Below are positions 9,028 through 15,593 of a DNA stretch of 32,000 nucleotides, piece by piece. The stretch's first letter is position 1. Every line of letters begins with the position of its first letter. The notes below the pieces were generated by a model. That model was not told the origin of the DNA, searched no databases, and saw nothing but the letters and a program-made list of their open reading frames with translations. Made by a program: the position numbers and the translations under genes. This DNA is from Candidatus Odinarchaeota archaeon (GTDB taxonomy: Archaea; Asgardarchaeota; Odinarchaeia; Odinarchaeales; Odinarchaeaceae): NCBI GenBank assembly GCA_038826135.1, contig JAWBON010000006.1, positions 340 to 32,339 of the forward strand, in the 5' to 3' direction.

Positions 9028-9720
9028 TTACGGTAGGAAGATGTTTATTTTATTGTTTTCTATTTTGACTAGTTTGCTTTGCTCCAGTTCGTTGACGAGG
9101 CGGTTTAAGTATTGGGATGGGACTCCTACGGTTTTAGCTATTTCCTCTATTGATTTGGGACCTGTGTCTTGTATTAGGAAGTAGATTTTAAATTTTAAAT
9201 CGCTTTCTAAGACTTTTCTCCAGTGTCTGAATTTCTCCTCCCAGTTTGTTAACTCCATTTTCATGTTTTTCACGTCTTGCTGCATTTGCTTGTATTCTGC
9301 TGCTCTGCTATCTATTTGTTTAGCCAGGTCTTCTTTCTGTGTTTTTAACAGTTCCACCATTTTATTTTTTTCTTCTATGTCTGCTTTAAGATAGTTTATT
9401 TCTCGTTCATAATTTGTTTTAAGTTTTTCTAGTTCGCTGGTTTTAGCTTTAAGCTGCTCTTCCAGGGTTTTGCATTTTTCTTTAACTTCCGTTATTTCCG
9501 CTTCTTTTTTAGATAGTTTTGTTTCTATTCTCTGTTTTTCACCTGTTAGCTTGGTGATTTGGGAGGCTAGTTCCTGTTTTTCTTTATCTAGTTTTTCCAT
9601 TGTTGCCTCCATTTTCTCTAGGGCTGCTTTCTGGCCTTCGGTTATTGGTTTGCTTGCTGGTGTTTCGGTTTTAACTGTGCTGGTTTTTTTAACTCTTTGG
9701 GTTGTTTTTTTAGTTGACAT
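9028..9720 (-). CDS. Long coiled-coil protein with C-terminal winged helix-turn-helix (CC-wH copy A)
   Basis: 230 aa. K/T-rich N-tail, about 140 aa of E/K-rich heptads, then KIYFLIQDTGPKSIEEIAKTVGVPSQYLNRLVNELEQSKLVKIENNKINI (wHTH pattern). No Walker motifs. Confidence 0.75.
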   Translation of the reverse strand: MSTKKTTQRVKKTSTVKTETPASKPITEGQKAALEKMEATMEKLDKEKQELASQITKLTGEKQRIETKLSKKEAEITEVKEKCKTLEEQLKAKTSELEKLKTNYEREINYLKADIEEKNKMVELLKTQKEDLAKQIDSRAAEYKQMQQDVKNMKMELTNWEEKFRHWRKVLESDLKFKIYFLIQDTGPKSIEEIAKTVGVPSQYLNRLVNELEQSKLVKIENNKINIFLP

Positions 9721-9727
9721 AGTGATC

Positions 9728-9785
9728 TTTCCAAAATTTCGATTGATATATATTAGGGTTGGAAATTATTTTAAGTTTTCCAAAA
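9728..9785. promoter_or_regulatory. Three copies of TTTCCAA/TTGGAAA in alternating orientation upstream of CC-wH A (candidate operator)
   Basis: TTTCCAA at 9728-9734, TTGGAAA at 9759-9765 and TTTCCAA at 9777-9783; the last two form TTGGAAA-N11-TTTCCAA. Confidence 0.35.
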
Positions 9786-9819
9786 AATAGTTGATTTTAT
9801 TTTAAACTGGTTAAAATTT

Positions 9820-10221
9820 TTAAACTGTGGCTAGACTGTCTAGGATCTCTTTTATCTTGTTGATAGCATTTAAAACGTCTTCATCCATCCAGTTTGCACC
9901 TGTTTTCGATATTATGGCTAGGATGTATTCTCCACTGTTTTTTGTTGTAAGTGTTTTAATGACGAGGTATCCGTTTTCAGCTCTTATAACAATGTCTTTC
10001 GGTTTTCCGAGTTTGATTGTGTGAACTGTTTGGTTGACGATGCTGTGGACGGATGGTCCGGCGGCTGCTATGAAGTCTTCGTCAGCTCCCCCCTCTATGG
10101 CTGATGATATTAGGAACCCGTTTTCTGTTGTTATTATGCTTGCTTTGAATTTGCCTAGTTTATTTAACGCTGCTAGAGCGTTTTCTAAGTCTTGTGAAGT
10201 GTATTTTAACATATTTGGCAT
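9820..10221 (-). CDS. Roadblock/LC7 (MglB-like) domain protein
   Basis: 133 aa with the helix - ASIITTENGFLISS - helix (DEDFIAAAGPSV) - DIVIRAENGYLVIK - YILAIIS - helix layout characteristic of Roadblock/LC7. Confidence 0.85.
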   Translation of the reverse strand: MPNMLKYTSQDLENALAALNKLGKFKASIITTENGFLISSAIEGGADEDFIAAAGPSVHSIVNQTVHTIKLGKPKDIVIRAENGYLVIKTLTTKNSGEYILAIISKTGANWMDEDVLNAINKIKEILDSLATV

Positions 10222-12852: not shown

Positions 12853-14064
12853 CTATGTTTTCTTTATTACTCCGCTTGCCGCGAATAATATTGTAAATAT
12901 TGTTATGGCGAAGAGAGCGCCTGCTGCGAATATGCTGTTGAAACCGAATATGGTTGATATGAACAGCATTATTGCAGGTCCGGTGGTTTGACCTATTCTG
13001 AGCATCATCCCTAGGCTTGAAAGTATTACTCCACGCTGGTTAATGTTGGTTTCTTCAGCTACTAGTGATTGGATAAGGGGGCCGTTAAGCCCTAAAGCGA
13101 ACCCTATTAATACTATCGGTATGGTTATTAGCCAGATCTCTTTTATAAAAGGTATTACGAAGACGCCTACCGCGTATAATATATAAGTTGATTTAAGTAT
13201 GTTCCATTCAGAATGTTTTCTAGAAAGTTTCCCCACCTGTGTTGAGACCGCTGCTCCGATGAAAGATGCTGAAGACTGAACTATCCCTATATATAAAGGT
13301 ATTAACGTGAATTTACTGTTTAAAAACACTGGCATGAAAGTTATCCAGACACCGTAAATTATGAAAAAATTCATCACCCCCGCGGTGAATAGGACAAGTA
13401 CCTTGGGTCTTTTTATTATTCTCCAGGTTTCTTTAAAATATTCTCTGCTGCTTTGTTTTAAGTCAGGTTCAGGTGTGTCTAGTTTAAACAGTACTATGAG
13501 CGCTATGGGAAGAGCTATTAAAGGTAGTAGGAACGGGGCGAACCAGGCGAGGGTGCCTAAAGCGCCGCCTATAAGAGGCCAGCTACCTGTGCCGAAGCTG
13601 AGAACACTGGAATTATAGCCTAAGGCTGTTGTACGAGTTTTACCCGTGTATAAGTCTCCTATGATAGTGACGTTTAATACGCCTAGTGCTGCTGCGCCTA
13701 TTCCTTGAAAAAATCTTAGAATTATTAATATTGTGAGATTTGGTGTGAACGCGCATAGTGTTCCAGCTAAGCTGAAGAGTAAAAGCGCGGGTGTTAATAT
13801 TTTTTTTCTACCATATTTGTCAGATGATATTCCAAAAACCGGGGATAGGAATATAGCTGGAAGGGTGAAAAAAGTTATTAATAAACCCAGCTCCGTGTAG
13901 GGGTATGTTAAACCCAGATTCGGCCCTATAACAGGGAAGGCTGGTGAGATACTTGCAACTCCCAGAACAGCCATAAGGGTTACGCCGAATATTATTTGAA
14001 GATTTTTATCCAGATATAGCTTCTCAGATTTATGGTGTTCAATAGCCTTATCTAGGACTTTCAA
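12853..14064 (-). CDS. MFS transporter (drug:H+ antiporter-like)
   Basis: About 12 TM segments, motif A GISSDKYGRKK, LRFFQGIGAA and IGDLYTGKTR, and a second-half repeat GKLSRKHS. Confidence 0.92.
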   Translation of the reverse strand: MKVLDKAIEHHKSEKLYLDKNLQIIFGVTLMAVLGVASISPAFPVIGPNLGLTYPYTELGLLITFFTLPAIFLSPVFGISSDKYGRKKILTPALLLFSLAGTLCAFTPNLTILIILRFFQGIGAAALGVLNVTIIGDLYTGKTRTTALGYNSSVLSFGTGSWPLIGGALGTLAWFAPFLLPLIALPIALIVLFKLDTPEPDLKQSSREYFKETWRIIKRPKVLVLFTAGVMNFFIIYGVWITFMPVFLNSKFTLIPLYIGIVQSSASFIGAAVSTQVGKLSRKHSEWNILKSTYILYAVGVFVIPFIKEIWLITIPIVLIGFALGLNGPLIQSLVAEETNINQRGVILSSLGMMLRIGQTTGPAIMLFISTIFGFNSIFAAGALFAITIFTILFAASGVIKKT

Positions 14065-14099
14065 AAATATCCCCTGTAATGTAGGTTTTATCTTACTGG

Positions 14100-14834
14100 T
14101 TAAATTGTTTTATTAAGTTTAACAGTTTGATCCATAATTGTTATTATCCCTTTTTCTTCTAGGGAGCGTAATCCGCGGGTTATTATTGACGGTGGCTGTG
14201 AAACGTTTTCTTGGATTTCTTTTATTGAAGTCTGACCTGTTAAAATTATGGTTGAGAGAATTGCTGCTTCAGGTGGTGTTGAAGGGGCTTCAGTTGCGAG
14301 GTAATTAATTAAAGCTTCTTTTTGCTTCAACTGTTCTATGGCGGTGTTTGTTTTCTCTATTTCTTCTAATAGCTTGTTTTTCTCCTCTTCTCTTCTAAGC
14401 TTGATTTTCTTAACTTCGTTTTTAGCATTCTCTATTTTACCTACCAGGCTTTCAGATTCTGCTGTTAACTCTTTTTTGCGTTTTTCAAGTTCACTATGAG
14501 AGGTTGTTAATGTTTTCAGCTTCGTTTTTTTCTCGTTAATATTTGTTTTAATTTTCTGAATATTTTTATCTAGGTTGTCTAGTTCGCTTTCAAAGCTTTC
14601 TAACTGTTTTTTCAAGTTTTCAACATTTATTTTCGCCCTATCGATTTTATCATCAAGCTCTCTTTCAACCTGGTTTTTTAATTGAAGGTTTTTCTCAACT
14701 TGTTGAATACTATCGGTGATTTTCTCGTTTTCGCTTATCAGCTGGTTTATTTTAGAATTTGTATACTCTATAACGGTTTTAAAACGGTTTATGAGCGTGT
14801 TTATTTTTTCCTTAACACTTACTGTTTCACTCAT
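14100..14834 (-). CDS. Long coiled-coil protein with C-terminal winged helix (CC-wH copy B)
   Basis: 244 aa with about 175 aa of heptads, then PPEAAILSTIILTGQTSIKEIQENVSQPPSIITRGLRSLEEKGIITI. Starts 9 nt after the copy C stop, with a GAGGG SD. Confidence 0.78.
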   Translation of the reverse strand: MSETVSVKEKINTLINRFKTVIEYTNSKINQLISENEKITDSIQQVEKNLQLKNQVERELDDKIDRAKINVENLKKQLESFESELDNLDKNIQKIKTNINEKKTKLKTLTTSHSELEKRKKELTAESESLVGKIENAKNEVKKIKLRREEEKNKLLEEIEKTNTAIEQLKQKEALINYLATEAPSTPPEAAILSTIILTGQTSIKEIQENVSQPPSIITRGLRSLEEKGIITIMDQTVKLNKTI

Positions 14835-14843
14835 TTTAATCCC

Positions 14844-15593
14844 TCATCCCATCATTAACTGTTTTAATATTCTTATTTGACCGGTGCTCTCATCCAATTC
14901 TAGTAGGCCTCTTCTCTCAAGCGCTTTAACAGTGGATTTTATAACGTCTATTTTAGAGAGCGTTGTCTTCTGAATATAATCTATGCTTGTCACACTCTTA
15001 CCTGTAAGAGCCTCGGTTATCAACTGTTCCGGCGTTTTTAAGAGCTTGTTTTCTAAAAGATATTTAACAGCTTTATGAAGTGATTTAAGCCTAGCCAGGC
15101 TATCTGATTGTTGTTTATTTTTATTGTTTAACTCGTTTATTTCTTTCTCAAACTCTTTTCTAATTTCACTTAGATTGCTCTCCGCACTTTCTAGTTTAGT
15201 TCTCCCATCTTTAACGTTTCTTTCAAGCTCTCGAACTGTTTTTTCCAAGCTTTTTACACTCATCTCGTAATTGTTAAGCTCAGATGTTAAACGCTCCTCC
15301 TCTTCTTCAAGAGTCGCTTTCTCTTTTATCCGATTATCTTGAATTGTCTTTAACTGATTTAAACGATCATTTAATTTACCTATTTCTGATTCAAGGGCGC
15401 TGTAATTTTTCTCCTTACTTTTTATACTGTTATCCTTATCTTCGACGAGTTTTTTCAAACTTTCAACATCTTTTAAAATATTTTTCAACTCGTTTTTCAA
15501 ATCGCTATGCTGCGTGCTCTGATAATTATTTAATTCATTCAGAATACTCTCCTGGTTTTTTAAAAATAAAATAATATCTGTAAACTCTTCCAT
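14844..15593 (-). CDS. Long coiled-coil protein with C-terminal winged helix (CC-wH copy C)
   Basis: 249 aa with about 175 aa of heptads, then TPEQLITEALTGKSVTSIDYIQKTTLSKIDVIKSTVKALERRGLLELDESTGQIRI. GAGGTG SD upstream. Confidence 0.78.
   Translation of the reverse strand: MEEFTDIILFLKNQESILNELNNYQSTQHSDLKNELKNILKDVESLKKLVEDKDNSIKSKEKNYSALESEIGKLNDRLNQLKTIQDNRIKEKATLEEEEERLTSELNNYEMSVKSLEKTVRELERNVKDGRTKLESAESNLSEIRKEFEKEINELNNKNKQQSDSLARLKSLHKAVKYLLENKLLKTPEQLITEALTGKSVTSIDYIQKTTLSKIDVIKSTVKALERRGLLELDESTGQIRILKQLMMG

Follow-up and report, generated by a model that had tools for sequence, protein, structure and literature searches.

A conserved pair of coiled-coil/winged-helix genes in Asgard archaea and its probable assembly as a heterodimeric rod

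A 32,000-nucleotide stretch of a Candidatus Odinarchaeota assembly (NCBI GenBank GCA_038826135.1, contig JAWBON010000006.1, positions 340 to 32,339 of the forward strand; hereafter 'the window') contains two adjacent genes, here called C and B, each of which encodes a long coiled coil followed by a C-terminal winged helix (wH). We find that these genes are a real, phylum-wide, unnamed two-gene module of Asgard archaea, and a variant of a coiled-coil/winged-helix rod theme. They are paralogues that remain adjacent, in the same order and tightly coupled, in one Asgard family after another, and that match in length and heptad phase; modelling predicts that their products pair along a common rod, and the ligand and cellular role that we propose for it are inferred. 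Our preferred reading, to which we give a probability of roughly 60%, is that B and C are an ancient, co-inherited paralogue pair forming a parallel heterodimeric adaptor of fixed length, the heads of which most likely grip DNA. A third gene of the same general architecture, A, lies in the same window and is treated below as a member of a separate family.

Architecture of the three genes

The features on which the argument depends are the following.

14844..15593, minus strand: gene C, upstream member of the pair, 249 amino acids (aa); an open reading frame (ORF) with orthologues of ~248 aa across the phylum and a place in the C-type clade of the tree
15051..15590, minus strand: rod of C, one continuous helix (residues 2-181, ~27 nm), from AlphaFold2 and the heptad scan
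14868..15032, minus strand: wH head of C (residues 188-242), with canonical wH topology and MarR/SarA/CRP as best structural matches
14100..14834, minus strand: gene B, downstream member of the pair, 244 aa; an ORF with orthologues and a place in the B-type clade of the tree
14295..14834, minus strand: rod of B (~residues 1-180), sharing the heptad phase of C (heptad scan); in the complex model its a/d contacts over 43-166 are in register
14115..14279, minus strand: wH head of B (~residues 186-240), MarR-like by Pfam MarR/TrmB scores and the family alignment
9028..9720, minus strand: gene A, 230 aa, of a separate, distantly related coiled-coil plus wH family (ORF, Pfam, hhalign)

A preliminary description of the window, made from its letters alone, had placed three related ORFs on the minus strand within 6.6 kb, each with a long coiled coil and then a C-terminal wH, and both the ORFs and their architecture are as it described. 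The conservation of these features across many genomes means that they are not chance. The description also held that the heptads run uninterrupted, which is correct for B (one register over residues 1-161) and for C (16-164), the two sharing register and phase in the heptad scan, and not strictly correct for A, where the register changes near residue 100. The motif L..YL...PE..I that it had noticed ahead of the wH of B and C proved to be conserved in both families. It had further set the three proteins apart from SMC and Rad50, and we agree: no ATPase, hinge or membrane-domain match was found in any of them with Pfam or NCBIfam, and the first 170-180 residues of each drew only generic coiled-coil noise from Pfam.

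C and B as a conserved, probably ancient pair

The start of B lies 9 nt past the stop codon of C and is preceded by a GAGGG motif. As single sequences the two proteins resemble each other weakly (BLASTP E 4e-6, 26% identity, in an alignment that spans the junction between rod and head), and a comparison of the C-family and B-family profiles (hhalign) gives a probability of 99.5% and an E value of 2.5e-23 over 245 colinear columns. Judged by their family profiles, B and C are clearly colinear paralogues.

A search of related genomes with B and C returned the two genes adjacent, with C first, in many families. On contigs where the flanking genes are unrelated (ABC transporter, SecY, Arf GTPase; one such contig is labelled Heimdall), a C-type gene is followed 12-28 nt on by a gene of 246-252 aa. 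Twenty further loci were fetched from about eight GTDB families, and wherever the contig continued past the C-type gene (18 loci) a B-type gene follows it on the same strand (18/18), at a gap of -4 to +17 nt and often with overlapping stop and start codons. A single branch (99/98) of a maximum-likelihood tree of 51 sequences parts the upstream from the downstream genes, and the subtrees on either side are largely mirror images, which indicates a single duplication predating the divergence of the sampled Asgard families, apparently followed by co-inheritance.

The C-family profile matches 195 of 400 Asgard genomes at E<=1e-6, and full-length relatives form about 40 clusters among 1.84 billion representatives. 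Named relatives come from Thor-, Heimdall- and Hodarchaeota and are called 'hypothetical protein' or 'MarR family transcriptional regulator'; the ESM Atlas clusters nearest to B and C are unnamed and Asgard. Among the labelled members seen, B and C are confined to Asgard archaea, a restriction that the preliminary description had envisaged. The word-indexed homologue search is of limited use for low-complexity coiled coils, and returned 0 proteins for B alone, 2 for the B profile and 1 for the A profile. Literature searches found no paper and no curated or named family describing the B-C pair; a survey of ESCRT components (PMC10936438) covers different archaeal proteins in which a coiled coil and a wH occur together.

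A separate subfamily of coiled-coil plus wH proteins, 229-248 aa long and encoded by a single gene without an adjacent paralogue, was also observed, at 1492-2181 of locus L042 (genome G011) and 1510-2256 of locus L043 (G010). These single genes come from Asgard families in which the C profile returned no pair.

A predicted parallel heterodimer of fixed length

AlphaFold2, given the family alignment, models residues 2-181 of C as one unbroken helix with a predicted local distance difference test score (pLDDT) mostly >90, followed by a 6-residue linker and the wH at 188-242. The C-family rod aligns gap-free, and both pair members keep about 245-255 aa, full-length relatives being mostly 242-254 aa. 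When C and B were modelled as a complex, the interface score ipSAE was 0.67 in three runs, compared with 0.00 for the best control; of 80 solved complexes, 58 attain a score of 0.67, as do 2 of 110 mismatched pairs. The runs share at least 98% of their contacts, and the partner chain has a pLDDT of 87. The contacts fall on a/d positions and join identical residue numbers in both chains over 43-166, beyond which come contacts at the junction and between the heads. On this model B-C is probably a parallel, in-register heterodimer.

The heterodimer model finds independent support in the shared heptad phase, the matched and constant lengths, the tight coupling of the genes and their largely mirrored trees. 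These same observations, together with the universal order of the genes, their often overlapping stop and start codons and the confidence of the heteromeric model itself, make it quite unlikely that B and C instead form homodimers or a mixed tetramer, an arrangement suggested by the frequency of self-pairing in such coiled coils; the complex modelling covered the B-C pairing only. The preliminary description had proposed hetero-oligomeric rods built from a paralogous family; that proposal survives for B and C, which are paralogues with a probable shared rod, and is not supported for A as a component.

We propose that the B and C chains, each a helix of ~180 residues (~27 nm), would zip together in parallel and in register, with residues 43-166 (~18 nm) as the confidently modelled paired core. 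Two MarR-derived wH heads would thereby come to lie side by side at the C-terminal end, and short, conserved N-terminal tips at the opposite end; heads are present at one end of the rod only. The paired heads would grip a ligand, most likely DNA, and the far N-terminal tips would contact something else or another rod.

Most members of the B and C families begin Met-Ser-Glu, and the first ~20 residues are conserved. The heptad register of this N-terminal tip in C differs from that of the main rod, and the tip lies outside the confident interface. The conserved tip may be a separate interaction site.

Identity of the heads

In both sequence and fold, the heads are nearest to the wH domains of the MarR, TrmB and HTH_24 families (PF01047, PF01978, PF13412). 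The B head scores 22.8 bits against Pfam MarR (cut-off 24.6), 18.4 against HTH_24 (cut-off 21.9) and 20.2 against TrmB. The C-terminus of C draws no Pfam match in the full protein, and its isolated head gives E values of 0.019-0.05 with no family at cut-off; A passes HTH_24, at 29.4 bits against the cut-off of 21.9. The model of the C head (pLDDT 83.9) has the canonical order H1-S1-H2-H3-S2-S3 with a wing, and is a winged-helix fold. Its best Foldseek match is the MarR regulator 7kua (E 7.6e-4), and in the VIA fold comparison MarR, SarA, CRP and SelB-type wH domains score best, with Z up to 9.6, trailed by about 1-2 Z by cullin WHB, kleisin/cohesin Scc1-C (Z 8.2-8.3), ESCRT-II (Z 7.9), E2F-DP and Sso10a (Z 7.9 for Sso10a-2). 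By sequence, the C head retrieves only MarR proteins, marginally (E 0.008), and full-length profiles retrieve only coiled-coil noise from PDB sequences (myosin, SMC, tropomyosin). A specific likeness to the wH domains of Hop2/Mnd1, Ska1, ESCRT-II or CdvB, which the preliminary description had raised, did not emerge: no Hop2, Mnd1, Ska1 or CdvB chain is among the listed fold or sequence matches of the C head, an absence that falls short of proof, and the heads match MarR/CRP/SarA-type wH domains in general.

MarR proteins dimerise via helices that flank the wH, and in TrmB the wH comes first and the coiled coil after it. The B-C proteins differ from this plan in that pairing would be by a 180-residue N-terminal coiled coil, the heads come from two different genes, and B and C both score below the Pfam cut-offs. 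Flanking helices of the MarR type are absent, C ending a few residues past the wing with the N-terminal 180-residue helix as its only long element. It is therefore improbable that B and C are ordinary MarR-type regulators that use the coiled coil for dimerisation and control nearby genes, even though their heads are MarR-like and a MarR family label has been given to one relative. The genes beside the pair change from lineage to lineage (MFS transporter, ABC transporter, SecY, Arf GTPase, transposase), a repressor would have no obvious need for a 27-nm rod of phylum-wide constant length, and the obligate pairing of two genes is unlike MarR regulators.

What the heads may bind

Several observations weigh against the reading of B-C as a heterodimeric, DNA-gripping adaptor. 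The heads are near-neutral to acidic, with a net charge of -4 to +2, and in three pairs from metagenome contigs (one of them Heimdall-labelled) their isoelectric points (pI) are 4.7-5.7; the whole B and C proteins are mostly acidic as well (pI about 5-6, a few near 8). The exposed third-helix positions in the C head are variable and frequently acidic, unlike those of a conserved DNA reader. The DNA-bridging or segregation role suggested in the preliminary description is conjectural, the rod having heads at one end only and those heads being non-basic. The controls for the complex model were unrelated, non-coiled-coil proteins, and leave room for the zipping of any two coiled coils of equal length. 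The pair has no conserved neighbour that would point to a pathway. Lastly, a genome of the same genus (G001; 97% complete, 6 contigs) has no B/C-like ORF, so that the module seems to be dispensable in at least one close relative, or lost there; G001 has no A-like ORF of the right size either, the only matches being coiled-coil noise in long ORFs.

The B family, for its part, has a third helix that opens with an invariant Pro-Pro and contains a conserved Arg, and a basic residue in the wing. Given a MarR-like match on the one hand, and non-basic heads with a variable third helix in C on the other, DNA binding is a plausible and leading guess that is far from secure, and a protein-binding role is a serious rival. 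Under that rival the rod would be a scaffold or cytoskeletal adaptor whose heads clasp a helix or peptide of a partner, in the manner of ESCRT-II Vps25, CdvB, cullin WHB or the kleisin wH; that partner could even be the N-terminal tip of a following rod, in which case filaments would form head to tail. The charge of the heads and the poor conservation of the C third helix fit such a role, as do the conserved N-terminal tips of both families and the scores of cullin WHB, Scc1-C and ESCRT-II, which come near those of DNA-binding wH domains. Sequence similarity nevertheless favours DNA binders of the MarR type, B retains its third-helix Arg and basic wing residue, and no partner gene is kept beside the pair. 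We regard a protein ligand as possible, if on balance unlikely.

Comparison with known systems

Hop2-Mnd1 is a eukaryotic recombination accessory heterodimer with N-terminal wH domains and a rod made of three leucine zippers with two kinks (PMC4402518). B-C, as modelled, resembles it in its two paralogous chains of ~200-250 aa, its parallel coiled-coil rod and its juxtaposed wH domains at one end, and differs from it in having C-terminal wH domains and a continuous helix. None of the Pfam matches shown is to a TBPIP or Mnd1 family. Hop2-Mnd1 is the closest known complex in architecture only, with no homology detected. Ska1 shares the domain order of B and C, a coiled coil and then a C-terminal wH-like domain (microtubule-binding in Ska1), and C scores 16.7 bits against Pfam SKA1 (cut-off 29.6), mostly over the coiled-coil part.

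Long coiled coils and a similar composition are also found in SMC, Rad50 and the archaea-specific SMC-related proteins (ASRP), whereas A, B and C are without an ATPase head, hinge or zinc hook; NCBIfam models of SMC, Rad50 and ASRP reach 30-35 bits over coiled-coil stretches only, against cut-offs of 300-1087 (at least 567 for SMC/Rad50). With regard to CdvB and ESCRT-III, there is no Snf7 match, PspA_IM30 reaches 14.6 and 12.7 bits (cut-off 33.9), and C is modelled as one straight helix rather than with a helical hairpin core. Prokaryotic dimeric rods with wH DNA-binding heads are represented by RacA and Sso10a, which anchor or organise chromosomes. Both are homodimers with an N-terminal wH, neither is Asgard or a pair of paralogues, and Sso10a is only ~95 aa long.

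A as a separate family

A consists of a Lys/Thr-rich tail (residues 1-27), a coiled coil (~28-170) and an HTH_24 wH (174-219), and the whole protein is basic (pI 9.2). Its relation to the pair is distant: BLASTP gives 0.031 for A against B, and by hhalign the A family reaches 98.5% against the B family and 96.4% against the C family, in alignments that require gaps; A is also about 15-20 aa shorter. Head-only hidden Markov models (HMMs) of A, B and C, from which the contribution of the coiled coil is removed, were searched against every ORF of 80 aa or more (1739 in total) in the genome of the window (1.26 Mb, 93% complete, from hot-spring metagenomes). The B-head HMM ranks A (6.8e-7), C (6.6e-5) and a 432-aa protein (1.1e-4) ahead of every ordinary regulator; the C-head and A-head HMMs do not return the other two, and the A head links only to the 432-aa protein. 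The kinship of the three heads claimed in the preliminary description thus holds as a loose superfamily.

The 432-aa protein, encoded elsewhere in the same genome (contig C4, 17384-18682, minus strand), is a fourth coiled-coil protein with a C-terminal wH, and has a tail of the A type. Such tails also end proteins of 430-650 aa in other Asgard genomes, so that the coiled-coil plus wH architecture is expanded in the phylum.

A lies near B and C only within the genus (in the window and in two further genomes, G002 and G003). In G006, the sole sister-family genome where a relative of A was found, the relatives of A, B and C are on three different contigs. A has a neighbour of its own:

9820..10221, minus strand: Roadblock/LC7-like gene immediately upstream of A (21.9 bits with Pfam Robl_LC7, cut-off 23)

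The same arrangement, with the Roadblock gene ahead of A, recurs in G002, of the same genus, and in G006, of the sister family (loci L026 and L028), and was not seen in two more distant lineages (L029 and L030). The Atlas cluster nearest to A carries a Bathyarchaeota label, in contrast to the Asgard clusters nearest to B and C. Another label in this neighbourhood of sequence space bears out the warning of the preliminary description that pipelines misname such proteins: a cluster near A is named 'Chromosome partition protein Smc' and one relative of A 'chromosome segregation ATPase', just as a relative of B is called a MarR family regulator.

The central proposal of the preliminary description, that A, B and C are one three-component system of hetero-oligomeric rods, appears very improbable in this light. 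The common architecture, the A and C matches of the B-head HMM, the 98.5% hhalign probability between the A and B families and the spacing within 6.6 kb in three genomes of the genus all lend it some colour. The linkage stops at the genus, however; A differs from the pair in its length, gapped alignment and change of heptad register, its type of tail also occurs on much longer proteins, and both its Roadblock/LC7 neighbour and its nearest Atlas cluster set it apart. A is probably an independent coiled-coil dimer, with DNA binding predicted through its HTH_24 head.

Genomic neighbourhood

Two further features of the window adjoin these genes.

48-8295, minus strand: complete type I-B CRISPR-Cas set (cas6, cas8b of the TM1802 type, cas7, cas5, cas3, cas4, cas1), directly adjoining the A neighbourhood
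15640..15828, minus strand: 62-aa 6-Cys protein similar to the desulfoferrodoxin N-terminal domain (22.3 bits in Pfam, cut-off 23)

In the window, A, B and C are flanked by the type I-B CRISPR-Cas operon, thyX, a gene for an MFS transporter and various metabolic genes. No connection was seen between the CRISPR-Cas set and the A, B and C genes, and none of the flanking genes of the window is kept with the B-C pair outside the genus. Between A and B are a 140-aa protein (10883-11305) and a 447-aa hydrophobic, probably membrane, protein (11474-12817), both with no Pfam match.

The 6-Cys gene sits 46 nt upstream of C. It was considered as a third member of the operon and rejected, since of 14 loci checked only the window and G002 have it upstream of C. 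The divergent intergenic region between thyX and the 6-Cys gene (15826-15940) contains a block conserved with G002, in which a GTTAAC-type palindrome and a TATA-like run probably represent promoter elements. No conserved inverted repeat turned up upstream, where the alignment of the two genomes showed only a conserved block beside the thyX start. A scan for sigma-70 promoters and terminators gave nothing usable, the sigma-70 model not being applicable to archaea. Pieces of 151 nt inside B, C and the upstream gene were observed in two runs that are labelled metatranscriptomic but are probably DNA, and are not counted here as evidence.

Significance

Asgard archaea are studied for the origin of eukaryotic cell organisation, with attention mostly on genes that have recognisable eukaryotic homologues. 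The B-C pair contrasts with these in being widespread in the phylum, derived from one old duplication, fixed in length and nameless. Labels such as 'MarR family regulator', 'Smc' and 'chromosome segregation ATPase' on relatives of A, B and C are unreliable.

It is tempting to go further, and to see in B-C a structural element specific to Asgard archaea, an undescribed nucleoid-organising or cytoskeletal component, in the nearest prokaryotic kin of eukaryotes, that would either tether DNA, gripped by its paired heads, to another cellular structure via its conserved N-terminal tips or polymerise head to tail. We hold this to be a long shot; under it, the pair might be a forerunner of eukaryotic paired coiled-coil/wH complexes such as Hop2-Mnd1 or Ska. 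Short of that, a rod with two heads and a set length is suggestive of a spacer or tether rather than an enzyme or a simple repressor. If its heads bind DNA, B-C would be a candidate organiser or anchor of the nucleoid; if they bind protein, it would be a candidate scaffold.

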